Made by a program: the position numbers and the translations under genes
The notes under the pieces: model-generated
Databases searched by the model: none
Told to the model about the DNA's origin: nothing
What the model saw: the letters and a program-made list of their open reading frames with translations, nothing else
Shown: positions 516 to 64,000 of the stretch, in pieces
How positions within the stretch are numbered: position 1 is the stretch's first letter
Layout: the number at the start of each line of letters is the position of its first letter
NCBI GenBank assembly: GCA_903843285.1
Contig: CAIMPC010000057.1
Coordinates: forward strand, 6,456-70,455
DNA length: 64,000 nt
Direction: 5' to 3'
Source of the DNA: Candidatus Omnitrophota bacterium
Lineage (GTDB): Bacteria; Omnitrophota; Gorgyraeia; 2-01-FULL-45-10

Positions 516-603
516 GTCATTCTGAGGAGGGCTTTAGCCCGACGAAGAATCTAAAAACGAGATCCTTCGCCCGCCACCAATACTTCGGCGGGCTCAGGAT
601 GAC
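516..603. repeat. Hairpin repeat element copy 1 (GTCATTCTGAGG...GAAGAATC / ...CTCAGGATGAC arms). Sits just downstream of the giant ORF stop.
   Basis: Shares the GTCATTCTGAG/GAAGAATC and complementary CTCAGAATGAC arms with 8 other copies in the window. Confidence 0.5.
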
Positions 604-632
604 AGAAGTAGATTTCCTTCTTTACGACACGT

Positions 633-3600
633 TTACGCGGCGGAGCGGATCACGGTGATCGCATTTCTGTAGGTCTCGATCTCCTTACCATAGTCGATCG
701 GTAACACCCTGGGCAGATACTTAAAGATACCATCGGCATACGTAACACCAGCCGGTAATCTGCCTTCGGCTACTAATTGATCCAGCAGATCATTCGGCAT
801 GGTGACCATATTTAGAAGCGTCTGATAGTAGTTAATCGAGGCGATCTCTGTCTTCCCGCTTCCCACATCCACCGATTGAACCTCGAGGAGTTTTTCCCCG
901 CTGACAGGTCTAACACTATCAAACTCGCCTTTAGCGTAGGCTATGCCGATATTATTGATATTGATACTGCGATTATCACCGATCTCTGTGATAAGTTCTT
1001 CATACGGTATGCGGAGACTGCCGTCTGCATTAAAGCCATTCACAAACCTGATAGCATTAATATCTCCCTCATATCCGGAGGCCCTGATGAATGCTTTGGC
1101 TTCATCAGACGTCTTAAACTCTTTACCGTATATGAAGCAGTTAACCACACCCATCGCATTGGCCTTACTCATATTATCAGCGAAGAACATGTTAGAGGAT
1201 GCCACTGCCTCGGTCGTCGCCACCGCGTATGTCTTCTCGGCAAACGCGGGATTATCAGCCAGAGGCGCATTATATGCAAATCTTATTCCTTCTCTTCTTA
1301 CATTAATAGCAATCTTTAGCGCTTCTTTTCGCTCATTCAGCCATGATGTTTGCAACTGATATTTAAATTTCTCATCAAGGTTGTATTCTTCTATCCGTTT
1401 AAGCTGTCGGCGTATTTCTGTCAATATCTTCACGAGCTCTTCTCTGGTCTTCGAGCTTACAATGACGCTGGAAGCATCTTCTACGACCTGACTCAATGCC
1501 GGAGTAAGCACGTTGTAAGCACCTTGGCCCAGCATACTGTTATCGATAAATACACCATTATATTTACCGGCGTCTACATCCGCATTAAACTCATTCAAGT
1601 CGAGGGTAACTATATCGGCTCCATGGATAATTCCGGGTTGCGGCATTAAGCTAATAATGGTTTTGACGCGGGCCATGTTCTGCGCATCTGCCTCGGCGTT
1701 ATCTGGACCGCTTTGTTTCTGCAGAGCTATAATAAATTTCTTTCCACTTGGAACATGCACGCGAGCTATATTCTCTTTTGCCCTGACCTCTGCCACGCGC
1801 ATAGCAAAGAAGCCGGAGATAAGCGGCATGGTCCCTAACATAGCCGTCAGCTCACTCTTAAAGGTCTCGTGCAATACTATCAGATTCCTGGCGCTCTCAA
1901 GGAAACCGTTTCTATATAGAATTGAATCAGCTATAGATTCTGTATATATTGCCGCGGGAATGGTACCTCTTAAGGGAGATTCTTCGGTCGACCTTTGGCC
2001 TACCTCAGAATGACGTAATTGGATCTTCTCAAATCCCTTAAAGAATTCTATCCTTACCCTGCCCTCGCTATCGATGGTCCGGCGCGAGAGATCAGGCAGT
2101 TTCATTATAATGTCTACACCATCAAATCCCACACCGTAATATTCTCTGAAATACTTCCCAAAGGCTTCTGTTATATGGCTATTTAGATACCATAGCCTGA
2201 TAGCCATTGCCGTCGCTTCGAGGCCTGCCGTAAGGCCCACAGCCGCTCCTATTAATGGCAATATGTCATGGGTTTGCGATGCGGCTATCGATAGTAATAT
2301 CATACTTACAGCGCCCAATGCACCCAGCGCGGCAAACCCTGCAGACCACCACATGGCAACTTCGACATTAAAAGGATGCGCGACTTTCCTCGGCAATGCC
2401 CTTACGCGGGCTCTGGTAGCTGTTATCGCGCTGGGCCGGGGGGCATTATTAATCGCATCTATAACGCAATTGATTACCTTATAACCGGGTTTCCAATATC
2501 CACTGCCTGCGATAAAATACAGCTCTTCAGCGCTGATACCCAGTAGTTTGTTTATGTTCACGGGGAGCTCCAGATCTATGTCTTTCATAGTCCTGGATAC
2601 CGCTCGCTCTCCACGGTTAATCTTACCGGGATCCATAAAGATCTTTTTCGGTTCGAGGCTATTACAGCGTCTTTCGAGCTCCAGCGCTGTTTTGGGCCTT
2701 ATGACTCCGGCGACATATTCGCGGGTATTACTAAAGGTGACTCTACTTAATAGTAAGTCCTTCTCATCCGGACTTGGTATTAAACATTGTCCCGTCTTTA
2801 GCTCGGCTCTTTCATCTAACTTCTTCAAATCCTTCTTCAAAGCTTCTTCGGACAATTGTTTCTGTATTCTTTCCTCTATGTCTTGTCTTGGGTCACCTTT
2901 TAATAGTGGGATAAAGCCTTTGTAGTCGCCCAGATTATTGCCCATCGTAACGGCTAAATCCAGGGGCCTGGCTGATACCGGCAGTTCCACTGCCTGCATA
3001 TGCACCTTACCCTGCATATTCAAACCAAAATAGACTACATAGACACTATCTTTTAAGAAATCCAGTGTGCTGTTAAAATATCTGGTGTAATCACCGTAAA
3101 TAGGTTTAGTTGCCTTGAATACGGGGTAATTATGGCCAAACAAGCTCTGAGTAGGTTCCAAGTGCAGTAATTTATAGATCCAATGAGGTATAGGAGTCTT
3201 TGGCCCTGCGAGATACACGCCATTTTGATAGCTCACATAATTTTCTTTGGTCATCAACATCATTTCGATCGGGACCTCAGATCCAATCTGCCTTTTGCCT
3301 GAGGCGTCCATAGTTATTCGCGCGCACTGGAACGTAATATGCACAGCTTCATAGCCTCTTTTATGTATCGTAGGCGAGTCCGGATCGACCAAGCCGTCTC
3401 CAACCCTCATTCTTCCACTACTAAGAATTCTGGTAGATTCACATAATTTGCGAGCAATGAGGTCGCGAGTATCCTTAGTTTGAGTAACTACACGAACCCC
3501 GAGGATATCCTCTACCTTATATCCTTGTTTACCACCCTTTTCCGGATTAATGAATTTCTTATAGCAGCTGTAAACATTCTTAGGACGATATTCGACTGTG

Positions 3601-6600
3601 ACGTCCTCATCTTTAGGTATTAAACCGTTTCGCTTGGCAAGCCTTACATATGCTTCCAATCTCCCCGCTGCCAATACTAATACTTCTCTGAGGGTTTTTT
3701 TGTTTACATCGATGCCATTTAAGGCGACTGTCATCTGGCTGAGGGTCCATTTATAATTTCCCGGATATGCGGCCTTAAAAGCCTCATCGATAATATCGCT
3801 GGCTACTTCGTATAGGCCCAGCCTTTCAGCTACCGGCGAATAGATATATTCGACTTCTTTAAAAGCCTTTTGTTTAGCATTTTCCGGAGCACTATAAACA
3901 GAATCCAGTTTATAGGCCAGCAGTAACAGCATGCTATTCAGTGATCCCGTCAGCTGGATCATCATATTCATGTAAAACTCCAGAGTATTTTCTCCCCTGA
4001 GGAACTCTGCAAAATCTTTTTCTTTGGTGGAATCGAGAGTCTCGATTGCTTTTATAATATCTTCTATTTTTCCCGTACCCTTATAATTAGGGATCGTATC
4101 GAGCATCGCTCGTAAATTCTTCCGATCAATATTATGCAGTAACGCGGCGACGATCAAACGCTCATCTCCTATACCCCAACGAGCCAGGCTAGCCGCCATG
4201 TTAATAGAATGGCGATTGCCCGCGGCCATTTCGAATGCCGCCGTTATGCTATTCTCGGCAGAGACGACTTCTGCGCTGGAGAGCGTACTCTTCGCCCTGA
4301 ATAAGTTTATTATATTCCTAAGAGCCCTATTCGAGGCATTGATATCAGAGACGGATGTCAAATCCTCACTGATCGTTATCATATGCTTCTGGAGCAATTT
4401 ATAAAATTCTTCGTCACCCTGCTCGAACGCAACCCTCTCAGCCTTTGCCTGTAACTCTCTCTGGCTTCTGATAAAAGCTCCGAGAACCAATCCAAGCGGA
4501 TTATTCTTCTCGCTGTTATCAGTTTTATGATAGATAAATATCCTGTTATTACGGACAGTGGCCACTAAATTTGCGTGTGTGCCGCGCGGAGTTAACGCCT
4601 CCAAGGCTTCGTGCAGAATATACTCCTGGATAAGATTTCGCCTATACTTATTAATCATGGCATCGGATAATCCCGGGTAGCCAATGATAGTTCGCAGATC
4701 GCATGTCAATATAAACCTGACGACTTCCGGTGATAAACCGATCTTAAATTGGTGTTTGCCGTTAGCATCTACTTCCGAGCGAACCTTAGCCAGGCCCAAC
4801 AGGTGACCGGTATCGGGGGCTACTAAAGGCTCGAAGAAGAATATGGCTGATTTGTCTGATAATAGATCTACCGCGGCCTTAACGCGCGACGGGACGTTGT
4901 GCGCCGACACCACTCCGCCGACACTCTGCTGTAATCCTTCGGATATATCTCTAAGGGCTTTAGTCGAAGTCTCCAATTCTGTGATTTCAGGGCCATACTC
5001 TGCGGTCGGGTCGCTGATAATGCGCAGTAACTTCTCCTCTTGGCCTTTTTCGTTCATCCTTACTAATGCTATCGCCGTTTCGTAGTCAGGCGCATTTATT
5101 ACGTCCGCTATGGCCTTCTGTGCTCCGACAACCTCATTGCCCGCATGCCCGATCGCGCCGCCGAGCGGGGCGGGTGGGTTCTCGGTAGGTGGATTCTCCA
5201 AAGTAATAATCTTATTACCTTTGGCATCTGTGACCAGCTTGGAATCTACGGTTGATACCACAGGTGTCTGCGGTACGGCCGTTAAAGCAGCGGTCCTGAT
5301 GCCGCCCTTACGCTTTATAAAATCGATAATACTAATCAATACAGGATTCTCTGTTGCATAAAGAGCACTTTCACACACACGTATTTGGCATAGCTCATTA
5401 ACCTCCGTATACAGAGATTGCTGGGCTTTAGTAATGTTCTGGTTATTGATGTCGAGAAGAATTGATTGTTCCTTGGGTTCCAGGGAATCCCATATTGTTA
5501 TTGTTAATTCGGATTTGGCCTTATTAGCTACTTGCAATTCTTCATCATTTTGAGCTTTGGCTAGAGCAAAACGCACATCTCTGAGAGAATCAGCAAATCT
5601 CTTTGCGAGGGATAATGCCTTATTGGATAGGGCTTTATAAGCTACTGCCTTAAATTGTTCAAAACTCAGGTCATTTACCCTATCATATAGAACGGTGGAG
5701 GCCTTATCTCCATAAACAGCCTGAATATCCTTTCTATTATTATCGGTGAACCTATTGGATTGCCACATATCATTGGTTAATTGATCTTTTGCCTCATTAG
5801 CTGATTGCAATTCTTCATCATTTTTAGCTTTGGCTATAGCAGAACGCACATCTCTGAGAGAATCAGCAAATCTCTTTGCGAGGGATGGTACTTTCTTAGA
5901 TAAAATCTCATCGACTGCCTTCTTTAATTCTGCTAAGTTTAGCTCATTTACCTTGTCATATAGAGTGTCAGAGGCTTTATCACCATAAATATATACGAGT
6001 GCTGATTGCCCTTCAGGTGTCAGGGACTTAAATAGATTTTCTACCAGTGCGGATTTGGCCTTATTAGCTGATTGCAATTCTTCACCATTTTGAGCTTTGG
6101 ATAGAGTAAAACTCACATCTCTGATAGAATCAGCAAATTTCTTTGCGAGGGATGGCGCCTCATCTGCTAATACGCTATTTGCTACTCTCATAGATATTGC
6201 CAGGCTCAGCTCATCGACCCTCTTATATAGAGACTCCCGGACTGTAGTAATGTCCTGGTTATTGATGTCGAAAAGAATTGATTGTTCCTTGGCTTCCAGG
6301 GAATCCCATATTGTTATTGTTAATTCGGATTTGGCCTTATTAGCTGATTGCAATTCTTCATCATTTTTAGCTTTGGCTAGAGCAGAACGCACATCTCTGA
6401 GAGAATCAGCAAATCTCTTTGCGAGGGATGGCGCCTGATTAGACAGGATCTCATTGACTGTCTTCTTTAATATTGTCAGATTTTGCTCATCGACCTTATT
6501 ATATAGATACTCCCGGGCTTTAGTAATGTCCTGATTATTGATGTCGAGAAGAATTGATTGTTCCTTGGCTTCCAGAGAATCCCATATTGTTATTGTTAAG

Positions 6601-9600
6601 GCGGCCTTATCGCTACCAGCATTGGCTTCGCCCTTGCCTATGGAGATGCGGACGGTTATTAATTGTGAGGAGAATTGTTTTGCGAGGGATGGCACTTTCT
6701 TAGATAAAATCTCATTGACTGTCTTCTTTAATATTGCCAGGCTTAGGTTATTTACTATATCATACAGAACGGCGGGGGCTTTATCACCATAGCTATCTAC
6801 GAGCGCTGATCGTCCTTCAGGTGTCAGGGAATTAAATAGAACTTCTACTAGGTCGGATTTTTCTTTATCAGCCCTTTCTTTAATAGCGTTTGCTTTAACG
6901 CTATTGGTTTCTTGCTTGGCTTTCTCTATTAAGCTACGGACAGCTATTAATTTTAAGGAGAATTGCTTTGCGAGGGATAGTGCCTCATTGGATAGGATCT
7001 TATCGACTGCCTTCTTTAATTCTGCTAAGTTTAGCTCATTTACCTTGTCATATAGAATGCTTTTGGCGGATTTTTCATCACCATAAACATCGGTGAGAGC
7101 TAATTGTTCTTCAGGTGTCAGGGAATTAAATAGAACTTCTACTAGGTCGGATTTTTCTTTATCAGCCCTTTCTTTAATAGCGTTTGCTTTAACGCTATCG
7201 GTTTCTTGCTTGGCTTTCTCTATTAAGCTACGGACAGCTATTAATTTTAAGGAGAATTGTTTTGCAAGGGATAGCGCCTCATTGGATAGGATCTTATCGA
7301 CTGCCTTCTTTAATTCTGCCTGGCTTTGTTCATCGATCTTCTTATATAGATACTCCTGGGCTTTAGTAATGTTCTGGTTATTGATGTCGAGAAGAATTGA
7401 TTGTTCCTTGGGTTCCAGGGAATCCCATATTGTTATTGTTAAGGCAGATTTGGCCTTATTAGCTACTTGCAATTCTTCATCATTTTGAGCTTTGGCTAGA
7501 GCAAAACGCACATCTCTGAGAGAATCAGCAAATCTCTTTGCGAGGGATAATGCCTTCTCAGATAAGATCTTATCTGCTACTATCTTAGATTCTTCCAGAC
7601 TCAGGTCTTTTACTTTCTTATATATAGCCTTTTTGGCTTTAACTTCATCATAATCATACTTATCCAGAAGCGCCCGCTTCTCGTGACTGTGTAGCGCATT
7701 CCATATATATTCTTGATCGATTGTATTCCGATTACTCTGCACTTCATCTGCATTAACACTGCCTGGACGGATAAACCAGCCAATCCAAGGCACCAAACAG
7801 GCGACCAGCTCTCCATAGCCTGCATAATGCGTATTCTCGTGAAACTCAATATATCGCCGTATAAGTTTGTGTAAGACGTCGAATCCCGATGACTTCTTTA
7901 TTTCTCGCTTATTATCTAAGGAGATCTCAACCCACGCAATAGGCCCTGCACGTCCATGCATTGCCTTATTAATTTGTGCTAATGCTATCGCCTTTATTAA
8001 TGCATGGATCAAAAGATAACTACATAATACGCCAACTGCTACAAATACTCGGAACGTTATGTCCTGCCAACCATAACTTAGTGCCGCTATACTAAAAAAT
8101 CCAGCGCCAAAAAGCGCCTCAAAAATAGCCGTACGTACGATGAGATTCTTATCAAATGGCTGAATCCTTCCACCAAATTGATTTATTAATCTCTTGGCTA
8201 TTTCCTTCAGTACTTTATCTTGAGTCTTAGATAAGTTTGGCCGAGCGCCACCCGCAAAAACTCGACCCAATATTACAAAATATATCTCGTAAATTATACC
8301 TATAATACTAGCAAGGATACCAATTACAGCACTGCTTGTTACCATGGAGGCAAAAAATACAACAAATTTTGTGGGCAATCTCATCTGTCCCTGCCACGAT
8401 AGCGTGCTCATCACTCCACTAAATCCGCCATCACTCATAGGAACTGTAAAAGGTATAACACCCACTAAATGCCTCAGGACATCCACGGGGAAGAATGATA
8501 CCCATATGCTTATTATTAATATTCCAACACCAATCCCATATGTCCACCATTCCACACCTCGGGTCTCGTAATATTTCCCATTAACTTGCTTGCCTATTCC
8601 GAGCATCCAGCTCCATCCCGCAGCAAACATAAATGAGGCTAAAATGCTGGAAGTGCGCCACACGGCATTTGTCGATATAAATCCTGAGAACGATAAGGCA
8701 AATATGACAGGGATGGTATAAGTAACTATCTTTAATGCGGTATCAAATTTCTTAAATTCCGATGGCCATTTCTCCTTATCGGCACCATTTTTGATGGCAT
8801 AAATATACATAGCAATATTCGCAGTTATAATGGTTGCGATTATACCGCAACTTAATACAAAGTACGTTCCATTTAACTGAACTGCCAAGGAAGCTATATA
8901 GGGAATATATGACACGTACGCAGACAATATAACGCTGAGTGAAATAAGGATCGTCCACTTGAACATCTTTAGATAATAACTAATCATCGGATTGCCCTCA
9001 CCAACTACGGCGGCATTCCATACCAATGTGGGAGGCTTAACGTCCGGCAAAAATATATGATAGTATACAATCTTTAGGACCACGGGTAGTTGTCCAACCA
9101 GTAGAATTGGTTTAGTTACAATCTTCGTCAGGAAAATAGTGGTCGAGGCAACGAATTCGACCAGTCCTTTTAATAATTGCAAAACAAACAGGCAAGTTCC
9201 CTTTATACGCCCGTGCTCTTTGTATATCTGATTTCGCTCGGACGTGAATAAGCTTTTCAGCTTCGCTAAAGCAGGGAAAAATTTTGGACTGGTTAACAAT
9301 ATAATTATTGTTAAGAACGCAAATTCCCCGATTAATGGAAATAACATATCGAGGCTACCCGGTATAAACATAGCCTTAAACATGAGCACTAATTGAATAA
9401 GCCATATAAACTCTCCTAAAAGCCCTCTCACCACAAGATCTGACTCGTATCTGTGCCCCGGAGATAATCTGGGAATCCACATCTCGCCTGATGCTTCTCT
9501 AGCATTAATCCTATTACTACCTTCTTTAAATAACGATCTCAGAAGTAGGGTGCTTACCACCGCTCCTCCGAAGCACCATCCGATCATCCACAGCAGGGAC

Positions 9601-12600
9601 GTACCTATCAAGCCTACTATTACGGCCATTGGAATAGCGCCTGCTAAAATAGCGGCCGTCACCGGATAGTCTCGAATAAATGGTACAATCCTAATTACGA
9701 ATATCTGCGGCAGATCGAATACGTACATCCATCGAGTTGCTTCTCTGCGAGCCTCCTGACCATAGTTAAACATCGGATCTTCTTCGATGACGACTCTATC
9801 TAAATATTTGCACTTACCGCTCAATATAGTCAATACTTCGTCTTCGCTCTTGGGTAGTATATCATCAGTAGCTTTGAGATAGTTATAGTATGCCCATACC
9901 TTTTGGTAGGCATTAGTCGTGATCATGTCTCTGTAAAAATCCTCATTTCGGTAAGCATATTTACCGGGGGCGCGCAGTGAGTCTTCGATGATATATTGAG
10001 CCTGCGCAACATGCCCCAACATCGTCTGAGGAAAATCTTTCATAATATTAGAATGTATTGTGGCGTGCACATCGCTATAGATCATTTTTCCACGGAAGAA
10101 AGATTCCGTATTACGCCTATCGGCCATTACAGAAACTAGATACAAAATTCCCTCGCCTTTATGATCAGCCCTTTCGGCATAGCTTATTAAGTTACCCGGA
10201 TCGTATACAAGAGTATTTTTAATTCTACTTTTGCGCATTAGAGGAGGTATGCTCTTATCATTGATACTCTCTTGTCGTATATTCCTCAAATCATCAGGGT
10301 CGGCAGGATCGCCGCCCAATGTTTCGACTATAGGATTCATCCACTCATTATTCAAAGTAGGCTGATCCTTATTTTTAGCTTTTGAAATATCAGGGTCTAC
10401 ATTATATCTCGGATCGATCTTACAATATTCATCATCATCTTCGCGGAGCCATCTCTGCACAGAGTAGTGAGTAGGCGGTTTGGTCATTTTTTGTCTACGC
10501 AGATGTACGTAAACGCGTTTACGTACATGCTCAGGCATGGCATCCAAACGTTCTTGCACGAGCTTTAGTGTTGCCTTATAATGCTCCTCACCCTCTGTAC
10601 CAGATCCGCCAAAGACCTGAATCAATAAATCAAAATATAGATTATAATCCCTATTACCGTTGGGATCGCGCGCCTCTTCCATCATTTTCTCTACAGCCCC
10701 GATTCCTTCAGCGGTACCATCACCCATAACAGAATTGAAATTAGGCATATCTTTCAAAACCCCTGTCGCCAGATCTTTCTCCTTTCTCATCGGGAACGCC
10801 ATATGGATCATGGTCTTCTCGTCATCTGGAATTTTGCCCTGCTCTGTTATGTCGGTGCGCCTAAACTCCGGTTCCAATAGAGATCTGCCAGGCTTCACTA
10901 CATTATTGAATAACATGATACCCGCAGATGACAAATACACGCCCGGAATGATAGCTAAAAGCCACCAGGTTGTAACTGTATACAGAATAAGGTTTGAGGC
11001 CATAAAATTATTATAGTTATAGCAGGCCAGGATAGTAAGCACGAGGGCCGCCGTAACTACTGTGTTGAACCAATGATATAGAAAATGCTTTTGTGTTATT
11101 GCCAGCGACTCTACCACATTCTCCAGCCTTCTCTCGGCTTCCACCGGATCCAGCAATCTGGCGACCTCGTTCATCTTAAGATGCTTGGTAAGCAGTTCTT
11201 CATCTGCCGGCGGCTCTGCAGGTTTCGGCTTCAGTCTGGCAATAATCCCATCATTATAGCGTTTCTTGCCTAATCCCGTTATATATGTGCCGACAACCAC
11301 TAAGACCGTTAACACGAAAACAGAATTAAGATTGCCCCATCTGAACTTTTCCCAAAGATATTGTCTGAACTTTTCGAATTTCGACCAGTTTTTTTCTCTA
11401 ACGTATTTTGGGACCCCTCCTTCTGACACCTCTCCCCTAAGTCTGCCTTCCACTCTCTGTCTATCCATCGCGTTTATGGGGCGGGTAACGATCCTTTCAA
11501 AGGAATCCCTGTCATATTTAAGTGTTTCGAGACTGCCCAGGGTGTTAGTAGCTCCCATGACCGCATTTTCATCGAGGTATGTAAAGAGTTGCTTCGTTGT
11601 TATTTCCTGCGCAATATCATAGAGACTCCTCGGGGAGCTTGTCGGATTTTGCACTGACTTCGCGTTCTCTATTCTGACGGCTTCCGCTATTTCATTTTTT
11701 AAAGCAATGGCCCGCGCCGTCAACATCTTCACCACCGTCGGATTAATATCTTTCCTTAATATCTCGTGAGCGATATCCGCAATCTCTTTATCGTTCGCAA
11801 TGCCGACTCTCTTCAGCTCCGGTTTAATAATCGCGATTATGCCCGATATGCGAATATTATGGACGCATAACTCCGTTATAATCCTCTCGGATATCTCCTG
11901 AGCGTCGGCCTTAAGACCGTCCTCCTTCATCAGGGCTTTTTTCACATCGTCTATACTGTTTATTCTGTTCCCGAGACTGTCTCTGATTCTGGTAGATACT
12001 TCATTCACGCTGGCATCTTCCACTATGGAAGGCTCGACACGGCTAAGATAAGGACGAATAGCCGATGCTATAGGCACAGTATCGTATTCATCTACCACCA
12101 TATCGATTTGCGCGGGAGCCGAAATTATATGGTGCGCTGAAAGTTCCGCGGCTATATTATGGATAACTGACTTGTCTATGCCTATCCCCTCCAAGCGCGG
12201 GGCAATAGACTGGGCCAAGGCATCAACCTGAGAAGCATCTCCAATTTTAAAGGTATCAGATTTTTCAATAAGCCCTACTTTGAACCACGTATCCACCAGA
12301 TATAGAACATCCTGCATGTCTACCTTCGGATCTACTATGCGGGCGGATGCAGTTGCATCCATTATCATTTTATACGTATCTTTAGTTCTATCTACGAGAT
12401 TCCTTATATCATCCTCTCCGAGGCCACTCATAACAGCGTTCGTTGCCAACTTACGCGTCTCATCGTCAGTAAGATATATGCCCAGTTCATTAAATTGGTC
12501 CTTCGTAAGGCGAGATAACCTGAGAACTTCTTCCAGTAGATTCATCTCGATCCCGATATGGTTTTTGAAGGACCATAGACCAGCTTCATTCTTCAAGTCC

Positions 12601-15600
12601 TCAAGCCCCCGCTTCCTTTCCGGACTTAAACCGGGGACCTTTAACTTTGCGGCAATATAATCTATCTTCTCCTTGCGTATGCTACGTTCCATGTCTTCTC
12701 TATGCCGTGAATACATAAAGACCGCCTTCTCGCCGATGCTCTCGGCGAGAGTGGATATATTAGATTTATCATCTGTTGTTAATTGAGCGTCCCCCTTGCC
12801 ATAGGCTTTCTTATATATCTCGCGCACCTTTACCGGTAACACCTCGTAAACAAGTATAACGCCGTCTTCATCATATCCCAACCCCGTCATCTTATGTAAT
12901 AGTATCCCCGCTTCATCTTCATCTATCGGAACATCCAAAAGCCGCGCCTTTTCCATCAGACTTTTTAAAACTCTCTCTTTGCGCGCAGGATCCTTCTCGA
13001 TTACGATAGCCTCCTGTATCTTTTCCTTCCTCTCATCATTTACCTTGCGCTCGTAATCGACTAATACGGAATGCTTCGCGTTAAATCTAACATATATATC
13101 TTCCACCGCCTCTTTCTTCCGCAGTTCCGCCGCGATAAGGAACGTTCGTAGGCTTGGAGTAATAACTTTGTCTAATTCTTCGCATTTAGTATCGATAACG
13201 CCCAGCGCCTGTTCCATTGCTATGGATGGATTTCCATCACAGATAATGCGTCCAAGAAACCCCCTAAACGACTTAGAGACACTTGACTGCCCTTCAATAA
13301 GCTCACCTTTCTTCGCCGCCACCTGAGCCGGAGTCAACTTAAACGGCATCAGATCGGATGTCAATGCTTCAAATTCTTTTAATTCCGAAACCGCTCTTCC
13401 GGGAGAAGGAAATCTTCCAAAATCGATCCGCCATTTTCGTAATATAAACGCTATATCATCGTATCTTTCCGATCCCAAAAACAGCCCCATAAATGCCAGG
13501 TCTGCTTTGAACGCAGTCTCAAATTTTTTATGGGCCTGGAATTTTTGCACCCAAGTCATCAATTCATCGCTCTCAAGCCTTAATTGAGAGAGTACAGGAA
13601 ATATATTTTCCCATCCGATAAATGTCTGCATGTTCGCATAATTTTCTCCCTGCGCCCATGCTATATCCTCAAATGTGTCTTTGATCCATTTAATATCATT
13701 AAACCCCTTCCCTGCCTTCCTGGATTCCAGCGCTTTAATATACATACGCGCCACAAAGCCTCTCCTTTGTCCCGGAGTGGAAAGAGGTAGAGCTGCTTTT
13801 ATCTTATCGACCAAGCCGGTGCGTATCTTGCCTTCAACGTCTACTCGTTTAAGGTTATGGTATCTATCAGCATACCCAGATATCCTAATGTTGCTCAATC
13901 CATTTACATCCATCAGATTATCGACAAGAGTTCTCGTATCAAATACGGGCTGTGTCATCAAATACAGGAAGGCTTTTAACCTGTCATCAGAAAGTTTCCC
14001 TATATAATCCTTCATCAAACCATCCGCTATAACAGACGGAAGCTCCTTCTCCTTTTTCGTGTAGAGGGATTCGTTCAATATAAACGATCCCATAACTTCC
14101 TTTTGGTACCTCTCTCTTTCGGCCGTTTCCACAAGGTTAGACGCATCGGACATATTCAACCTTACAGGAGCTCCCAGTTCATCTCTATTATGTAGCATAT
14201 ACACAGCCTGAAGGTACATCTCTGCTGCCGTTTCACGCACCAACCCCCTGGTATCGATAGTATATCTCTTTCTGAACATGTACTTCATACCTTGCGATAT
14301 AGCCTCTCCAAAGGTGACATCTTCATTCATAAGGCCTTCTGTGGCCTTACCTTTCGGGCCTATATTCGATCCGTCAGAAGCTTTGGGGAGGCCTTTGATG
14401 TAATCATAGGCGGTAATAGCATCTTCTTTTTCCACTCCTGCCCCATCATGTATTTTTATTTTCACTGTCTCGCATGCATTATCCCTAAGACGGTTGGGGT
14501 GTCGGCTATGATCAATTTCATTGAGCAATTCCTGGCCGGCTATCAGGCGTATTTTCTTAGCATAAGCCACGTTTTCAAACAAGGCATCGACTGTTAAAGC
14601 TTTCCCGGTTGCGAGCTCATAACGAGGCCCATATTCTCTGATGGCTTTTCGTACCGCCTTTGAGAAATACGATAGTCCTTTTGCGTACACCCACACATTT
14701 ACATCATACTCTTTGCTCCATTTTCGCGAGGCGTCATGGACCTGCTCCCGCAGTGAAAAGTCTTCATCCCTGTATGCTTCAATCTTTTCCTTTAAAGCAC
14801 TGAAATCAATAATTCCATTATTGAAATTGTCAATATCTCCCTTTAGTTCGTCTGCATCGATAACTTGTATGGCAAAATATTTAGCCTCAGCCATCGCCGC
14901 GCCTTTTTGGAATATCTCTTCGGCGCTCTCTAACATATACCACGTATCTATATGCTTAAGGAATTTCTGTATGCGCTCCATACCTCTATCTGTAGCAACA
15001 GCCTGGAATAGTATCCGCACAAGGAGTTTGTTTACGGCATTTCCATTCGAATCAAAGAAGTCCTTCCAGCTTTCCGGCTTTACTGTAATGACCCTTCCGA
15101 TAGCCATTAGAATTCCGTTCTTCTCTCCTTCATCGAGAGGAAGATACTCCCCTACACTCCGTTCTAGATTAGGCATTACTATAGTATATAACTTTACTAA
15201 ATTCCTGCCGCTGGCTTCATCCGGCACTTTTCCATTTCTGTCGAAATAGCCTGCCCACGTCCTGGGTTTAACCATAAGATCGATCGCAATAGCTATCCTG
15301 CGGCCCTGGGCATCAGGATCATCGCCTATAAGTTCTTTTATCCCTAACTTTGTAGCCTCTAATTCGATCGTATGCTCACACTCATATATCTGGTTAACAG
15401 CTTCCGGATTTATAATTGCCCCTGTCATCTGAATCCACTTATTCTTTACCCACGCGGATTTTTTCTTCTTCGCCTCCATATCCATGGACGCGGACATTCT
15501 GCGGCCTTCTGATACAGGATCATCGCCCTTGAACTTCTCAACGTTGCATCTTACGGCTTCCAGAGCAAGCTTATCCGTAACGCCATAAATGTGGTTTACT

Positions 15601-18600
15601 TCACCGGCATTTATTGTGATAGGTTTGCTGGGCCTGGATTCATCTTCATATATCCATTTATTCCTCACCCAGACCGACCTCTGGGCCTTTGCGACTATAT
15701 CCATAGCCGTAGTGATCCTGCGCCCCTGGACTATCGAACTGTTCCCGGCGAGTCTATGAATATTCTTATTCTTCGACTTCGCCAACTCTGCTAACTCAGC
15801 ATTGATACGTAATATATGATTAACGGCATCGGCGTCTATAATTATAGGTTTGCCCGGCCTGGATTCATCTTCATATATCCATCTGTTCTTTATCCATGCG
15901 GACTTCTTCTTATTCGCTTCCATGTCCATAGCTATAGACATCCTGATACCTTTAGAAGTAGCATCTCTACCTAATAGCCCCGGAATGCGCTTTGCTCCGG
16001 GCAAAACAGCTTGCGTAGCGATATCGCCGGCTACTTTGAATATATGCTTGACAGTTATCGCATCTATCTTTATGGTCCTGGCATTGCCATAGGCCGCCAC
16101 TTTGATCCATCCGTTCTTTATCCACGGGCTCTTCGCCTTATTTTCCACCATATCTCTCGCCATTGCCATCGCATTATCTTTTATCTCTCGCCTGGTAAAA
16201 CCAGACTTCTTGAGGGCAAGTTTCAGGCTCGGTAATACGCTCTTAAACAACTCGTTAATATTACCAATGTTTCTTATTCTACCATCGCTGTTAAAGAAAT
16301 TTTTCCAAACAGAAGGATCGACCACCAGATCTCTCGCTATAGCTGTCGCGTAGTCATTTATCTCTTTAGGACTCAGCCCTACCGAGGCAAGCGATCCCTT
16401 TAGATTTGGCAGCACTGTTCCAAATAGTTCAACAACGTTCGCTTTCTGCGCAGGCGTATTTATATTGCCCTCTTTGTCAAAGAAATCTTTCCAGGCCACA
16501 GTCGCATCGGGATCCCCCATGAGGCCAAAGATTGTGGCTGTGATAAAGCCCTGAATTTCGGGATCCCCAGGATTTAAGGGATTCATATTCGCTTCTCTGA
16601 GCGTCCTATTTATATTACTGAAGAACTTATCAAATTTATCACGAAGCGTTATTATTTCCGATGCGCTCAAATTATTATCGCGACCAAACTTAGTCCAGTA
16701 GAGCGAATCTCCGATAGTTCTTATGCTTTCAAACCTTCTCTTCTCATCTCTTATGTGACCCTCTATGAGGGCGCCCATCCCGGGACGTCGATTTATTCTG
16801 TTATTCTCCTCTGCGAGCAATGTATCCAGCCAATTAACCATGTTAGCTTCAGGTAGCACAGATAACTGGTTATCGGACAGGTGCTTATACATTTCACGTT
16901 TAGGATCGCTACTATCAGCCCTAAGATTTAAGTCCTCTTTTAAAGTAACCAGTAAAGATGTTATTTCATCGAGTCTCAATCCAAGTTCTTTTCTGAATTC
17001 CGGATCCTTTGCGGCCTGACGAAAATCCTCTATACTAATCCACTTATTCAACATAAACTGCCTTGCAAGGGAATTAAGCAGGCCTATGTCTTCTCCATTA
17101 TCGCTCGTGGAGACCTTTCTACTATGAAGCCTCTCGGCCACAGGCTGTAACAGTTCTCTCGTAAAAGGCTCCAGATCCTTATCCAGTTTACCCCACTCAT
17201 ATCTATCGTTGTCCCGATAGAAACTGATCCACCATGAAGTGAATTCGTTACGCGCGATGCCGCTTCGCCTGACCATGTCGGCGACAGCATTCGGAGTTCC
17301 GGCCTTGCATAAATTCTTATACCAAACAAAATATTTCTTATCAGACTGGAACTTACCTAACACCTCTTTTCTTGCATCCGCCACATCTATTGCGGTCATC
17401 TTAGCGGATGGGGATACATAGTGAGGGCTTTGTAATGTGGTGCTCATTCTGGCATAATTACTTAACAATCCCATCAGACTGGGATCGACCGCACCTGCCA
17501 TCCCGAGATTTGGATCAAAGAATCTGGAAAACTCTCTGGGTAGCTTACCGTTACCGCCAATCGCTCTCCTCACCCGGGGTAGCACGCTTTCACAGACAAA
17601 TATATACTCATCCAGATACTTCAGGCTCTCTTCTTCGTTTAGGTTCGCCGTAAGCCTATAAGCCTCAAAGCAGGCCGCCAGAGCCTTTATTTTTTCAACG
17701 TCCTTGCCGATGCCGAGGGGCTTCGCTATCATTTCGGATCTTTCGAGAAGCCTGGAGACATAATTAGAATTAACTCTGCTGACAATATCTTCCCATTTTA
17801 GAAGATTTTTACCTGAGGCATCTTCGTTACTTACGATAGTGGATATTTTATCCACCAGAGCGGCCTTTTTGACTGGGATAGCTCTTAATTTTTTAGAATC
17901 TGAATCTGCGCGCTCCTGGCGGCCGACTTCTTCCCACTCAGCATATTTCCTAATCCATTCCGCTCTGGCTTGTTCCGATTTCTCGCGCTTCAACGACTCT
18001 GCTTTTACATCATCGTCGATCGACACTGTGGCGACTCTTATACCATCTGCCTTTTTATCTAAACCAAACCATCTTAGATATGTAATAAGCTCTTCGCTCT
18101 TATGTTTAAACATACCCAGATTCTTATCAAAGTCAGCTTTTGCCTCAAGCCAGTCGAGCCATACCCTGTTATACTTCTCCATGCTCACAGTAGGAGGATT
18201 ATGCTCATACTGATCTCTGATCTGCTGAAGCTCGGCCCATGCTATCTCTTTTCGTTCTCCGGATGATAAAGTTGCGCGATACTGAGCGCTCCAATCATCC
18301 GTTAAGAGGCGCATGTAACTCCTTAAACGCTCACGCGCTAATACGAGCTGGCCGCCGCTCTGATCCGGGGCAAGAGTTTTGGAGTCTATCTCCAGAGAGA
18401 TATCACTATCCTCCGCTCTATCCATGTTTATCTCCGTAACCTTAGGGACATTTTGCGCTTTTGGCTCGTTCAAAAGCTGTAGAATAAACTCAGCGCCTCC
18501 GGATGTCTGTAGTTTCATTAGCATGCTATACGCCAGATCGCTACATACACGCTCGGCTTCAATCTTCTTCTCTTCCAGGTTTCTGATTACATCTATCGTA

Positions 18601-32313: not shown

Positions 32314-32400
32314 CTTCGTCATCCTGAGCGAAGCCCGATAGGGCGAAGCGAAGGATCTCGTTTTTAGATTCTTCGGCCCCTTCGCCCTCAGAATGACGAG
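32314..32400. repeat. Hairpin repeat element copy 4 (intergenic, between the GT-C/TPR gene and der).
   Basis: CGTCATCCTGAGCGAAGCCC...GAAGGATCTCG...AGATTCTTCGG...CTCAGAATGACG. Confidence 0.55.
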
Positions 32401-34696: not shown

Positions 34697-34838
34697 GGGA
34701 CTATTGCAAAATGACAAATTCCACGTCATTCTGAACGAAGCCCAAAGGGCGAAGTGAAGAATCTCGACGGTAAATAGATTCTTCGGTCGGCCGATGGCCT
34801 CCCTCAGAATGACGGAAGTTGTATTTCGCAACAGTCCC
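34697..34838. repeat. Hairpin repeat element copy 5 (full length with terminal inverted repeats), between rpoN and rubrerythrin.
   Basis: GGGACTATTGCAAAATGACAAATTCCACGTCATTCTGA ... TCAGAATGACGGAAGTTGTATTTCGCAACAGTCCC. Confidence 0.6.
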
Positions 34839-36213: not shown

Positions 36214-36264
36214 AACGCGCTCTTTTCATCTACAGCGTTTAGCCAGACAGAAGCTTAGTATAAG

Positions 36265-36338
36265 GGGCTGTTGCGAAATACAACTTCCACGTCACTCTGA
36301 ACGAAGCCATCGGCCTCCCTCAAAATGACGGAAGTTAC
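36265..36338. repeat. Hairpin repeat element copy 6 (short form), between the activator gene and rpoN.
   Basis: GGGGCTGTTGCGAAATACAACTTCCACGTCACTCTGAACGAAGCCATCGGCCTCCCTCAAAATGACGGAAGTT. Confidence 0.5.
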
Positions 36339-58009: not shown

Positions 58010-58024
58010 ACTTGATCTCCTTTA

Positions 58025-60226: not shown

Positions 60227-60275
60227 ACTAAACACCTCTGTTGCCCTTGGACTCCCGACTACATCTTATATACAT

Positions 60276-60291: not shown

Positions 60292-60303
60292 TACGTGCAT
60301 CAA

Positions 60304-60445
60304 GGGACTGTTGCGAAATGCAACTTCCGTCATTCTGAGAGAGGCCATCGGCCGACCGAAGAATCTGTTTACCTTCGAGATTCTTCACTTCGCCCTTCGG
60401 GACTCGTTCAGAATGACGCGGAATTTGGCATTTCGCAACAGTTCC
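60304..60445. repeat. Hairpin repeat element copy 7 (full length, both terminal inverted repeats), immediately upstream of the sigma-54 promoter.
   Basis: GGGACTGTTGCGAAATGCAACTTCCGTCATTCTGAGAGAGGCCATCGGCCGACCGAAGAATC...GATTCTTCACTTCGCCCTTCGGGACTCGTTCAGAATGACGCGGAATTTGGCATTTCGCAACAGTTCC. Confidence 0.65.
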
Positions 60446-60601
60446 ATACAAGTAGAGCTATAGTCCAAGCTACTAGAAATATGTAGGAATATTTCAACAC
60501 TTTTGTGGGAATTTGCTTACGATTTTTAATATGCTGCGGGGTTCCCGCGTTTATTCGGATCTGTCAGGACAATTAATCGCTTCAGATGTGAATCTAATCG
60601 G

Positions 60602-60934: not shown

Positions 60935-60953
60935 GCTATAGTATCCTCCCGGG

Positions 60954-61705
60954 TTATCTATAAATCTTGACTGGGGTAAGGGATATGTCGTCGGAGCTCA
61001 CCTTATCTCCCGCGGCGGCCTTTATTGTTACGCTGGAGGGTAAATAAAAACCTTTGGATTCAATATACTGTATCTCCATTTCGGTCTTTATCTCCTGCGC
61101 CACTATAATGCTTCTTTTCACCAGTCGTAATATATATTTGTTCTCGTATACTTCGAATAGCAACCGCGTGATTTCGTACAATTTTCCGTGCCTGAAAACT
61201 TCTTTCCTGTAAAGCCTTAAGTCTTTACCAAAATAGAGGATCTCTTTGCTATCCGCAGATTTATTTAACATCTCTATGGTGATGACCTTATCACTTCTTT
61301 TAATAGATATTTTAACGCCCCTTACTCGCTTTATGAGGATATCCGTAGCGGGGGCCATCATATCTAAGATATCTTTTATCTCGGCCTTCATTGCGGAGGC
61401 GGCCTTATCGAGGGATGCGTTCGAACCATATTTTTCCGATCCGACGGCCCTGGTTCTGGAGATAGCGGCGGGCTTGCCGGGCTTCCACCGGAGGATGAAT
61501 TCGACGTTACGGGCCTTCTCGCTTCTGCACTGAAAATCTATCTGCTTAATCTTGTGCTCGGCTAAATTATAATATTTACTGTTTATCTGCTCTATCAGTT
61601 CTCTCTCTTCTTTTGTCTGGCCATCATTAATAAGGCCGCACGAGACGAGCGACAGGCATACCCCAACCATCAAAAGAGACGCCAACACTGTCTTAAGCTT
61701 GCACA
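60954..61705 (-). CDS. Predicted lipoprotein (about 250 aa).
   Basis: Start at the ATG at 61705 (GGGAGG Shine-Dalgarno) gives MCKLKTVLASLLMVGVCLSLVSCG (lipobox LVSC). The longer ORF to 61808 merely reads through the upstream repeat element. Confidence 0.55.
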
Positions 61706-61730
61706 TGGATATAACCTCCCAGTCTAACTT

Positions 61731-61838
61731 TACGTCATTCTGACCCTGAGCGGAGCGCACTCCGTCATTCTGAGGGAGGCCATCGGCCGACCGAAGAATC
61801 TCGCTCATTAGATCCCTCGGCTACGCCTCAGGATGACG
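61731..61838. repeat. Hairpin repeat element copy 8 (two GTCATTCTGA arms plus a CTCAGGATGAC arm).
   Basis: CGTCATTCTGACCCTGAGCGGAGCGCACTCCGTCATTCTGAGGGAGGCCATCGGCCGACCGAAGAATCTCG...CCCTCGGCTACGCCTCAGGATGACG. Confidence 0.55.
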
Positions 61839-61861
61839 TAATTCATGTTTCCCAACATTCC

Positions 61862-62395: not shown

Positions 62396-62401
62396 CTATT
62401 T

Positions 62402-63904
62402 TTACCCCTTCTGAAAAGAACAGACTATCTCAAACTCCGCGTATTCCGTCTCATCCTCTTTCTTTGTGGTGGTATAGGTCGTCTTTACATTCTCGAACAA
62501 AACCGAATTTTCCAGCGTCGTCACATACTTAAAGACGTCGGACATCTTTCCCCCGCGGCCACGCAGGACAAGCCTGCGGCCCTCGTCTATATCTACGTTG
62601 GTGAAATATATCTCCCTGGGCGTTATCCTATATAGCTCGGCGAGTACGGTTATGCACGAATCCTTAGTGTCCATGCGGCTTCTGATCAGATCGACAGCTG
62701 AGCGCATCTTCTCAACCTTTATCGAGTCGCTCTCTACCCTGGCGATAGCTGACTTAAGGCTTGCCCTGTACGTGTTCTTCACCTGTATTCTGACAAGCAC
62801 TAATAATGATGCCATCGTAATGATGGCCGCGATAAGCACGCCGGTAACCATCAGCTCCTGCCTCTTAGCGTCGACGATCTTTTTGATGCGCAGTTCGAGC
62901 GGCGTCAGGTCTATGCTCGGATCTTTTCCGGAGAGCGCCATTCCCACCAGCGGCGTAATGGATACATGGTTAGAACTCTGACTGTCGATTACGCTGCGGT
63001 CGCACTTGCCCTCTACCCCTTTCGTGGGATCGGTATACTCCACCGGAATTCCCAGCTTGGCCGATAGGGCGGAGTCGAGGTCCTTTATATTCCGCGCCGC
63101 TCCGCTCAGGAACATCTTTTTTATTTTAACGCCCCGCTCATCGCTCTGGTAGCGTTCCAGGGAACGCGTAAGCTCCTCTATAAATTTGTCCCGCCATCCT
63201 CCCGGCGGCGGATCATCCATAAGATGATTTGCGCCGATAAATATGCTCTTCGTGAACGCAAGGCAGTCCTTTGAGACAGCTATCAGGTCGGAGTAATTAG
63301 AGTCTATATCCAGATCCAGGAGAAGCTCTTCCTCCATCTTCGCCAGATCCAGCTGACTTGCATAGGCGTTATTGAACCAGTTATAAACGCCCTCCGAGCT
63401 TACGGCGACCGTCTTAATCGCTATGCCGGCCTTACGCAGTGTATCGACGCGCTCCGTTACGAGGCTGCGCTGAACTATTACCAGCAGGACTTTCGCATAC
63501 CCTTCCCGAGACGATGGGTTTATCTTATATCCGGATATTATCTCTTCCTTAGAGTATGGCGTCTGTTTTCCGATCTGAAGATTTATCATGTCGTCTATCT
63601 CTTTTGGATCGGTCGAAGGAAGTTCGAGGTTTCTGGCAGTGACAAGATGCCTGGGGATATACATTATGACGGGCTCTTTGCCGATATGCAGATCTTTAAA
63701 TATATGCTCCAGCACTATTGAAACGTTATCTTTTATATCCGCGAGCTTTGTAAGGCTTATCTTTTTGATCGCTTTGGCGGACTGGGAATGGTCCTTCTGG
63801 GCCACCTTCAGCCAATCATTGCCTATCTCCACAATGACCATAGATCTTTTGGCATCCGGTTTTTTAGGAAGCATTGCTTTTATTTTATCGAATAGTTTGA
63901 ACAC
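62402..63904 (-). CDS. pilM: Type IV pilus assembly PilM (actin-like ATPase fold) fused to PilN (TM + periplasmic domain).
   Basis: N-terminal MVIVEIGNDWLKVAQ actin-like fold. Central TM LMVTGVLIAAIITMASLLVLV. PilN-like C-terminus. Confidence 0.65.
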   Translation of the reverse strand: MFKLFDKIKAMLPKKPDAKRSMVIVEIGNDWLKVAQKDHSQSAKAIKKISLTKLADIKDNVSIVLEHIFKDLHIGKEPVIMYIPRHLVTARNLELPSTDPKEIDDMINLQIGKQTPYSKEEIISGYKINPSSREGYAKVLLVIVQRSLVTERVDTLRKAGIAIKTVAVSSEGVYNWFNNAYASQLDLAKMEEELLLDLDIDSNYSDLIAVSKDCLAFTKSIFIGANHLMDDPPPGGWRDKFIEELTRSLERYQSDERGVKIKKMFLSGAARNIKDLDSALSAKLGIPVEYTDPTKGVEGKCDRSVIDSQSSNHVSITPLVGMALSGKDPSIDLTPLELRIKKIVDAKRQELMVTGVLIAAIITMASLLVLVRIQVKNTYRASLKSAIARVESDSIKVEKMRSAVDLIRSRMDTKDSCITVLAELYRITPREIYFTNVDIDEGRRLVLRGRGGKMSDVFKYVTTLENSVLFENVKTTYTTTKKEDETEYAEFEIVCSFQKG

Positions 63905-63920
63905 TCAAACCTCTTTCACT

Positions 63921-64000
63921 GTCATTCTGAGGTAGGCCATCGGCCGACTCTGTCATTCTGAGCGAAGCGAAGAATCCAGATCCTTCGTCGCTTCGCTCCT
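63921..64000. repeat. Hairpin repeat element copy 9 (runs to the window edge).
   Basis: GTCATTCTGAGGTAGGCCATCGGCCGACTCTGTCATTCTGAGCGAAGCGAAGAATCCAGATCCTTCGTCGCTTCGCT. Confidence 0.5.

Follow-up and report, generated by a model that had tools for sequence, protein, structure and literature searches.

Hairpin repeats scattered through a 64-kb bacterial sequence are CGTC-tagged REP modules and candidate sites of an Ssn-type nuclease

What kind of element is scattered through this DNA, and what could have copied it? A first-pass annotation of the window, meaning the whole 64-kb stretch analysed here, described nine loci as copies of a MITE of 140-175 nt with 35-nt terminal inverted repeats, of which the shorter copies were reduced forms. 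All nine loci are present, and an interspersed, non-coding, hairpin-forming repeat family does exist: the core motif CGTCATTCTGAG, with at most one mismatch, has 16 matches in the 64 kb against about 0.2 expected (0.22 over 100 shuffles, of which the largest count was 2), and the 35-nt end sequence, with at most two mismatches, has three matches in the window against none expected. However, the real unit is not the MITE, but a 25-43-nt CGTC-tagged hairpin module of the form (C/T)GTC-AT(T/C)CT-GA-[variable GC hairpin]-GA-AG(A/G)AT-C, of which the window holds approximately 19 copies. The 35-nt terminal repeat is a 25-nt outer repeat joined to the first 10 nt of this module, and the shorter copies stand free, as pairs of modules or as single ones, rather than being reductions of a longer element.

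In each module, an unpaired (C/T)GTC tag leads into a 5-bp stem, which is followed by a GA/GA internal loop and then by an inner hairpin that is variable and GC-rich. Under a strict definition, which requires stem complementarity, there are 14 modules in the window, with about five degenerate or truncated ones recognised by eye; across the 19, the tag reads CGTC in 16 and TGTC in three. All 14 strict modules begin with AT and end with AT, such that the stem opens with an A-T and then a T-A pair, and the T5-A pair is present in 97% of 65 distinct minimal modules. The GTC directly 5' of the palindrome and the C directly 3' of it are invariant, with the latter opening a CT(N) tail, which is CCAG in Bradyrhizobium relatives. 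The minimal module has 5 bp, tandem G.A, 2 bp and a 3-nt loop, amounting to nine stacked positions when the G.A are counted, whereas longer modules have an inner hairpin of 4-8 bp. Most modules are arranged as convergent pairs with their tags outward, with seven such inverted pairs in the window. By nearest-neighbour folding, single modules have weak energies, with z between +0.35 and -2.4 in six of seven and -4.3 in the seventh.

The module stem covaries across phyla. Within modules, ATTCT/AGAAT alternates with ATCCT/AGGAT; matched stem combinations make up 165 of 177 IMG/VR hits that were gathered without a pairing requirement, and 75 of 122 genome hits with both triplets left free are complementary, compared with 25.6 in shuffles (largest 40). 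The 65 distinct minimal modules have double-sided changes at five of six pairs, and 50 of them have G-N-A loops. Both G-N-A triloops and tandem G.A are in keeping with stable DNA hairpins. This class of module is found in Bradyrhizobium, Bacteroides, Dehalococcoidia, Acidobacteriota, Planctomycetota, Verrucomicrobiota, Nitrospinota, Legionella and others; it is a known, bacteria-wide kind of element, rather than a new one.

As the first-pass annotation had it, seven of the nine loci occupy gaps between genes of the same strand and two lie inside the giant ORF; the strand is in each case the minus strand, and the two copies are in frame with the ORF, 633..30692. The simplest are convergent pairs. 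At 515..604, lying 30 nt beyond the stop of the giant ORF, a TCT-type module (515-551, plus strand) and a CCT-type module (561-604, minus strand) are separated by the 9-nt spacer TAAAAACGA, and this spacer with its adjoining arms recurs, at 100% identity, in 32348-32375 and 27404-27429. The same conserved spacer joins the modules 32318-32357 (plus) and 32367-32397 (minus) of the pair at 32317..32398, between a TPR-protein gene and der. At 61733..61838, between pilO and a lipoprotein gene with a called start inside the element, a half module (61733-61760) precedes a convergent pair (61764-61800, plus; 61811-61837, minus). The locus at 63920..64000, situated 16 nt upstream of the pilM-N start, is a truncated module nested with a minimal 25-nt module at 63952-63976 (GTCATTCTGAGCGAAGCGAAGAATC), the start of its inverted partner being cut by the end of the window.

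The outer 25-nt inverted repeat encloses a module pair at four loci; the resulting unit is 143 nt long, or 177 nt where it contains three modules, or has an internal deletion. Both outer ends are kept only at 27308-27482, 34697-34838 and 60304-60446; beyond these and the internally deleted copy, the five remaining loci lack the outer repeat, and with it the terminal inverted repeats expected of a MITE. The 143-nt composite at 60304..60446 (plus strand; modules 60329-60365, plus, and 60379-60417, minus) folds as a single strand into one long hairpin (z = -8.7 as DNA, -7.7 as RNA). It is inverted relative to, and 92% identical with, the 142-nt composite at 34697..34838 (minus strand; modules 34725-34763, plus, and 34777-34813, minus), which lies between rpoN and a rubrerythrin gene, 5 nt from the ribosome-binding site of the latter. 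The internally deleted composite at 36264..36338 adjoins the stop codon of ORF 36335..37726, and retains one outer-repeat end, a hybrid of two module types and a truncated other end. Copies overall are 61-96% identical, but the 143-nt copies are 92-96% identical to one another at different loci, and so have spread recently.

The two copies inside the giant ORF continue its reading frame. At 1977..2035 (minus strand), a single module (1978-2014, with its tag at 2015) is followed by a decayed outer-repeat remnant that matches the end at 60311-60366 by 79%; the insertion is read in frame as LRHSEVGQRSTEES. The 177-nt composite at 27306..27482 (minus strand), with a degenerate module at approximately 27337-27372 (plus) and others at 27381-27411 (plus) and 27421-27457 (minus), supplies 59 in-frame codons, GTVAKDNFRHSE...ISQQSH. 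The 177-nt form also occurs in frame in a holB gene that very probably belongs to the same organism; there the insert is predicted to form a disordered loop, and all 150 of the best HolB relatives lack it. Rickettsia palindromic elements are likewise in-frame palindromic insertions in protein genes, essential ones included, that add a peptide segment, although RPE-1 has a longer, unrelated sequence, whereas the insert here is 177 nt of three CGTC modules and the outer repeat.

The first-pass annotation had proposed terminator, RNA-stability or REP-like roles, and the last was the correct one, as the module matches the CGTC-tagged REP superfamily. This includes the Neisseria dRS3/NTS and Rickettsia RPE-4/-6 repeats, and is characterised by a CGTC tag (with TGTC and CCTC variants), a stem of 8-9 bp, a loop of 4-5 nt and a CCA tail consensus (Di Nocera, De Gregorio, Rocco 2013, PMC3733652). 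Shared with the repeats of the window are the CGTC or TGTC tag, the A-T, T-A start of the stem, a short 3' tail opening with C, the predominance of inverted dimers, often heterodimers with conserved spacers, the location between co-directional genes, the in-frame copies within genes, notably those of replication, and the lack of an associated transposase. The differences are the GA/GA-interrupted stem with its variable inner hairpin, in place of an 8-9-bp stem with a 4-5-nt loop, and the CT(N) tail in place of CCA.

These repeats were catalogued in 2013 as having no dedicated enzyme (PMC3733652); in 2025, the GIY-YIG nuclease SsnA was shown to use the Neisseria members as its single-strand DNA sites (Chenal et al. 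2025, PMC11893778). SsnA binds the hairpin in vitro, but neither RNA nor duplex DNA, with the three bases 5' of the palindrome mattering for cleavage and the C after it for binding; SRM/NTS sites are cut on one strand only, as single-stranded DNA and not as duplex DNA or RNA, 3 nt 5' of CGTC (PMC11893778). The modules described here resemble those sites in their GTC 5' and C 3' of the palindrome and in an ATTC.../...GAAT stem. Yet the published SRM pattern, HGTCWYN(0-2)YYVSBRHN(0-5)WNVSBRGN(0-2)RNCYNB, has no match on either strand of the window, while matching a Neisseria NTS control.

In other genomes, the modules sit right beside genes for small Ssn-like GIY-YIG proteins. At one locus (L169), a GIY-YIG ORF has inverted modules of exactly this class on its flanks, and small, single-domain GIY-YIG genes are similarly flanked at L248, L250, L251 and L253, where each of the 11 modules is no more than 250 nt from the gene and the other approximately 36 kb contain none. 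The flanked proteins match Pfam PF01541 (E = 1.8e-12), the tails of homologues are translated modules in 70 of 120 cases compared with one of 150 controls, and among relatives of about 55% identity the flanking hairpins are of the classic NTS-like kind. Since this widespread GA/GA class escapes the SRM pattern yet flanks Ssn-like genes, published SRM counts are probably underestimates. The outward-tagged module pairs can be seen as a miniature of the 'hairpin - small GIY-YIG nuclease gene - inverted hairpin' arrangement of those genomes. No Ssn-like gene emerged when every ORF of the window and of L243, L244 and L245, approximately 100 kb attributed to the organism, was searched with a profile.

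On balance, we favour the explanation that the repeats are CGTC-tagged REP copies serving as single-strand sites of an Ssn-type nuclease encoded elsewhere in the genome. Where the DNA becomes single-stranded, the hairpin would form and be bound by the nuclease, as in the in vitro precedent of Neisseria SsnA; that the genome contains a cognate enzyme is assumed. A nick a few bases 5' of the tag, followed by repair or copying, would spread the repeats, which would survive only where harmless, either between co-directional genes or, given a stop-free frame and a length divisible by three, within genes; if operon transcripts were affected in their stability, this would be a secondary matter. Several points count against this explanation. 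The approximately 100 kb attributed to the organism contain no Ssn-like gene, the SRM pattern has no match in the window, and single modules fold weakly by nearest-neighbour energy. The GA/GA internal loop and inner hairpin set the class apart from the assayed Neisseria-type sites, and a Neisseria-type cut would land inside the outer repeat, leaving the copying of whole composites unexplained. In the literature, no published experiment shows Ssn nucleases mobilising CGTC repeats. It is conceivable, if doubtful, that the composite derives from a 'hairpin - ssn - hairpin' unit, as a non-autonomous form still mobilised here by a GIY-YIG Ssn nuclease. Weak hints of such a derivation are the tags-outward geometry that module pairs share with those flanking ssn genes, and a partial resemblance between the outer repeat and one Ssn-like gene, whose 5' end agrees with the initial 22 nt of the repeat in 17 positions.

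The composites themselves invite other explanations. They might be classical MITEs, cut and pasted through their 25-nt ends by the DDE-type transposase of a full-length IS elsewhere, with the hairpins as cargo; like the bacterial MITEs Correia and Nezha, they are non-coding, 100-200 nt long and intergenic, occasionally in frame, with terminal inverted repeats. The 25-nt terminal repeats do exist, but the outer repeat is missing at five of nine loci, and although the conservation between loci embraces the whole unit, including an outer repeat that a Neisseria-type Ssn cut would leave out, no consistent target-site duplication is present in the four complete composites, a small sample (window 27306-27482, 34697-34838 and 60304-60446; L244 10174-10350). 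MITEs elsewhere have such duplications together with a parent IS that shares their ends; in the DNA read from the organism, no transposase gene lies beside the outer repeat, and no transposase-bearing IS has these ends. Searched for exactly, the outer repeat occurred in this organism alone within the metagenome collection, and in no IMG/VR sequence. Furthermore, Halothiobacillus neapolitanus CGTC-1 dimers are likewise embedded in a palindrome, of 41 bp, with no free copies of it reported (PMC3733652). Empty outer palindromes are seen in neither case, and the sequences are loosely alike at most (GGGaaGCTT-GAAAaACC, which starts GGGA and contains GAAA, against GGGACTGTTGCGAAAT here). We therefore consider the MITE explanation unlikely, and any cognate enzyme is most likely not of a classical IS family, given that the module class flanks small GIY-YIG genes elsewhere. 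Less probable again is movement as REPINs, in which a RAYT, a domesticated Y1 HUH transposase of the IS200/IS605 type, mobilises REP doublets in single-stranded form. Inverted doublets, an unpaired 5' tag, conserved spacers and a mostly intergenic location follow the REPIN design in its general outline, and REPINs and E. coli BIMEs are similarly doublets and mosaics of tagged imperfect palindromes, thought to move as single-stranded DNA via a single-copy domesticated nuclease with a repeat-flanked gene. However, the tag is CGTC rather than GTAG, the genes flanked by this class encode GIY-YIG proteins rather than Y1 HUH transposases, a survey found no tyrosine-transposase gene flanked by CGTC repeats (PMC3733652), and no transposase was noticed among the ORFs of the window, in a reading that included no Y1-specific scan. 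This makes a RAYT a very improbable agent.

Selection for a role in operon transcripts, as terminators, processing sites or 3'-end stabilisers, would account for seven loci between co-directional genes, near stop codons or ribosome-binding sites, and for the strong folding of the composite as RNA; many REPs have also been argued to be transcribed (2013 survey, PMC3733652). Yet no element has a hairpin followed by a T-tract, such that the terminator role is not supported, and the terminator-like sites within 27000-37000 and 59500-64000 coincide with none of the elements. Neither the window nor 16 module-rich loci contain an Rfam family at its gathering score, a microRNA model at E = 0.1 being the sole, weak match. 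The G-N-A triloops and tandem G.A fit DNA hairpins, SsnA disregards RNA and duplex DNA alike, and in-frame coding copies are tolerated, making an origin through RNA function quite improbable. The concern that the copies are collapsed or duplicated sequence is refuted, leaving it a negligible probability: flanks are distinct at each locus, the copies have diverged, the 143-nt ones never being 100% identical, and independent public assemblies contain these loci as well (L001, one mismatch in 20,238 nt; L242, 100% identity over 1,806 nt).

The elements also mislead annotation, giving rise to spurious ORFs, to false gene starts (60954..61808) and to false C-terminal tails; the ORF-track entries over them are simply translations of the repeat, as first suspected. 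The window offers a clean case from outside the organisms studied so far, combining recently copied composites with an in-frame holB insertion, the latter agreeing with an earlier, unexplained remark that such repeats occur in replication and repair genes. If the composites are indeed derivatives of a 'hairpin - ssn - hairpin' unit that an Ssn nuclease still mobilises, Ssn nucleases and CGTC-tagged REPs would join IS/MITE and RAYT/REPIN as a third system in which a nuclease drives the spread of repeats, with the capacity to insert loops of 59 residues in essential proteins, HolB among them.

The repeats in the window form a genuine, dense family of CGTC-tagged hairpins of the REP/SRM class. 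The 12-mer CGTCATTCTGAG occurs 16 times in the 64 kb with at most one mismatch, against 0.22 in dinucleotide-preserving shuffles (largest 2). The first-pass annotation had described a MITE-like family at nine loci, bounded by terminal inverted repeats of about 35 nt. All nine positions were confirmed, and the 35-nt sequence is found three times at two or fewer mismatches where none would be expected, but the repeated unit is smaller, being a module of 25-43 nt. Duplication during assembly, an alternative raised by the same annotation, is contradicted by the differing flanks, by long copies that are 92-96% identical rather than 100%, and by the presence of the same loci in public assemblies made independently: a JGI contig (L001) has one difference from the window in 20,238 positions, and a metagenome contig (L242) is identical to it across 1,806 nt.

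Each module follows the pattern (C/T)GTC AT(T/C)CT GA, a variable GC-rich hairpin, and GA AG(A/G)AT C. A search demanding a complementary stem returned 14 in the window, and about 19 are present when degenerate and truncated examples are counted; the smallest, GTCATTCTGA-GCGAAGC-GAAGAATC, lies at 63952-63976, and the minimal module sequence is GTCATTCTGAGCGAAGCGAAGAATC. The three-module composite excepted, modules are usually arranged as convergent pairs, with CGTC tags outward and 2-13 nt between them, the spacer TAAAAACGA being exactly common to three pairs. Within any one module in the window, ATTCT is always paired with AGAAT and ATCCT with AGGAT, whereas the partner module may carry the other stem variant; hence stem pairing is intramodular. 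A nested arrangement, in which a 5' half module is followed after about 15 nt by a full module, recurs at 61733-61800 and 63921-63976, as well as in five unrelated contigs (L057, L089, L120, L193 and L213), and 63921-63976 minus 19 nt is a perfect module of the type at 34777-34813. The hammerhead ribozyme (CUGA...GAA) was considered and rejected, as its core does not match and Rfam yields nothing; no Rfam family covers the module, either in the window or in 16 module-rich loci of other genomes.

Across bacteria, the module recurs as a conserved and structured unit. Modules collected from IMG/VR with both positions free, on more than 120 contigs, carried a matched stem combination in 165 of 177 cases. 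A scan of one genome per species yielded at least 120 matches, those listed including Bradyrhizobium, Bacteroides, Dehalococcoidia, Anaerolineales, Acidobacteriota, Verrucomicrobiota, Planctomycetota, Nitrospinota, Legionella, Melainabacteria and others; the pattern used was 2 nt overlong at its 3' side (GAAGNNNATC), such that a length variant of the module was sampled, the matches nevertheless being real members. Among the matches listed there were at least five stem types, and a 4-nt stem segment was perfectly complementary in 75 of 122, relative to 25.6 in shuffles (largest 40). When 65 distinct minimal modules were chosen by their invariant bases alone as anchors, double-sided changes were evident at five of the six pairs, and the loop was G-N-A in 50. 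Mini-hairpins of the d(GCGAAGC) type, with G-N-A loops, are unusually stable as DNA, as are the tandem G.A pairs of pyrimidine-GA-purine contexts. Hence the combination of G-N-A loops and tandem G.A pairs fits a structure forming in single-stranded DNA.

Assignment of the module to a known class is well supported. The CGTC-tagged superfamily of repetitive extragenic palindromes, defined in a 2013 survey, is distinguished by a tag, CGTC or TGTC, that stays unpaired, by stems nearly always starting with A-T, T-A, and by a short tail (PMC3733652). Its members, which include Neisseria dRS3 and Rickettsia RPE-4 and RPE-6, mostly occur as inverted dimers, many of them heterodimers whose spacers are conserved, and lie between co-directional or convergent genes, but also within genes, notably those of replication and repair, and have no associated transposase (PMC3733652). 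In Neisseria, the hairpin NTS (CGTCATTCCCGCGMAVGCGGGAATCYRG) is bound and cut by SsnA, a 94-residue GIY-YIG nuclease that acts on single-stranded DNA only, and on one strand only, cutting a few bases upstream of the site; cleavage is governed by three bases 5' of the palindrome, and binding by the C just 3' of it (PMC11893778). The modules of the window keep the GTC, a stem starting with AT, and the C on the 3' side. None of these modules matched the published degenerate SRM search pattern (PMC11893778), because GA/GA breaks their stem, which also bears an inner hairpin.

At four loci the modules are enclosed by an outer 25-nt inverted repeat, with ends GGGACTGTTGCGAAAT(G/A)CAACTTCC at one side and GGGACTGTTGCGAAATGCCAAATTCCGC at the other. 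Two of these composites, of 142 nt (34697-34838) and 143 nt (60304-60446), lie in opposite orientations and are 92% identical; the third (27306-27482) has 177 nt and a third module, and the fourth (36264-36338) is internally deleted. One more 143-nt copy is on L243 and others are on L244, both contigs attributed to the same organism, and at 13720-13880 of L244 a composite has its module pair split by an extra near-perfect palindrome (GCCTGCCTACCTGCAGG...) and has lost the second outer repeat. An exact scan of the metagenome collection for the outer repeat retrieved two stretches and nothing else, one on L242, identical to part of the window, and one on L243, which shares only the repeat; an equivalent scan of IMG/VR found none, and literature searches with sequence strings returned only primers and unrelated matches. 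There is a precedent in H. neapolitanus, in which CGTC-1 dimers are nested in a 41-bp palindrome, GGGaaGCTT-GAAAaACC...GGTaTTTCgAAGC-gCCC (PMC3733652).

The folding anticipated for a full copy was recovered, the single-strand composite forming one long predicted hairpin (z = -8.7 as DNA, -7.7 as RNA); the proposed terminator role was not supported, as no terminator-like site (hairpin plus T-tract) in 27000-37000 or 59500-64000 overlaps any element. No consistent target-site duplication was seen among the four complete composites, three in the window and one on L244 (10174-10350); ATA follows the end bearing GCCAAATTCC in three of them. A good sigma-70-like promoter match (TTGCAA-17-TATAAT, 10/12; 34851-34879, minus strand) lies directly upstream of the composite at 34838-34697, which would make this composite part of the rubrerythrin transcript's 5' leader. 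Elsewhere, the minus strand encodes a gas-vesicle cluster (46000-59700), with two GvpA-like genes (PF00741), several GvpL/F paralogues (PF06386), a GvpN-like AAA_5 ATPase and an ArsA-like ATPase, and type IV pilus genes (60954-63904): pilM and pilN as a fusion, pilO and a gene for a lipoprotein. Hairpin pairs occupy the two gaps between these genes and also lie immediately upstream of pilM. For ORF 60954..61808 the called start falls within an element, and the true start is probably the M of MCKLKTVLASLL.

Two copies lie within the giant ORF (633..30692, minus strand), as the first-pass annotation had recognised, and each is read in frame. The composite at 27306-27482 contributes exactly 59 stop-free codons, read as GTVAKDNFRHSEEGQRSTEESKNEILPRSARQDDGRSLLHPSAPSLQNDAEFGISQQSH, and translation of the single module at 1978-2014 uses that same module frame, giving LRHSEVGQRSTEES. 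A protein search over the ORF's first element junction found no homologues of the flanks, its sole match being a 388-residue HolB (DNA polymerase III delta') that contains this 177-nt composite, read in the identical frame; the 59-residue element peptide itself retrieved no candidates. The HolB very probably comes from the window's organism, as one of the samples in which it occurs (ERZ1426628) also contains a contig of the window's locus. The segment is absent from the best 150 HolB relatives, from 1.8 billion representatives searched, which align as two stretches either side of an insert between the conserved NC and CxxCxxC motifs. In the AlphaFold2 model the core has pLDDT of 80-93 and residues 58-127 fall below 50, which suggests the insert is a disordered loop. 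The 177-nt form is open in only two of six frames, one of which serves both intragenic copies; the intergenic composites, at 142-143 nt, are not divisible by three. This is the pattern that purifying selection on random insertions would leave. The giant ORF is uninterrupted over 10,019 codons, with tandem repeats of about 91 residues x 8 (5320-7650) and about 75 residues x 4 (15433-16181). The sole difference of L001 in 20 kb, A to T at 29489, changes codon 402 from AAG to TAG, splitting the ORF into 401 and 9,616 residues. Just past the in-frame composite (27200-27310, minus strand) the ORF reads LLLAMVIGATLFISGCGSTSQ, a lipoprotein-like signal (LLLAMVIGATLFISGC), and it may represent two genes fused across the element.

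Homologues of ssnA in various phyla are flanked by such hairpins (PMC11893778). A locus of a Dehalococcoidales genome (L169), selected solely because it contains a module, has a 116-residue GIY-YIG ORF (PF01541, E = 1.8e-12) flanked by TGTCATTCTGAGCGAAGCGAAGAATATC and inverted TGTCATCCTGAACGCAGTGAAGGATATC, inside 35-nt inverted repeats with tags outward. Translated modules form C-terminal tails (ILRxAQDD, VILSEAKNL, DPSLRSG...) in 70 of its 120 best homologues, compared with 1 of 150 HolB controls, and at four further homologue loci all 11 modules lay within 250 nt of the gene, with none in the other ~36 kb. A profile of the family picked up members at another three loci chosen for their modules (L158, L195 and L198), and relatives about 55% identical have classic NTS-like hairpins on either side (GTCATTCCCG...CGGGAATCC), which connects these genes with the Ssn family as published. 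On viral contigs the association is weaker, as only 2 of 14 Ssn-like IMG/VR genes examined had flanking CGTC hairpins. Across public protein databases (P0152-P0271), most of the called Ssn-like GIY-YIG proteins that exceed about 100 residues do so through read-through into flanking modules, and such overlong calls are a systematic annotation artefact.

The profile found no Ssn-like gene in the window, L243, L244 or L245 (~100 kb attributed to this organism). As to what moves the outer repeat, a Neisseria-type cut would land inside it. The 5' end of an Ssn-like gene on L253 matches the first 22 nt of the outer repeat at 17 positions, the gene's first bases (AGACTGTGGCGCAAT, 4996-5010) resembling GGACTGTTGCGAAAT and having a partial inverted copy 285 nt past the stop (5570-5584). 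Other Ssn-like gene starts match less well, and therefore the likeness may be chance, making it a weak lead from sequence. The composite is a recently copied, MITE-like derivative of the CGTC-tagged hairpin family, and this organism would encode a cognate Ssn-type nuclease, which in turn may move the repeats.
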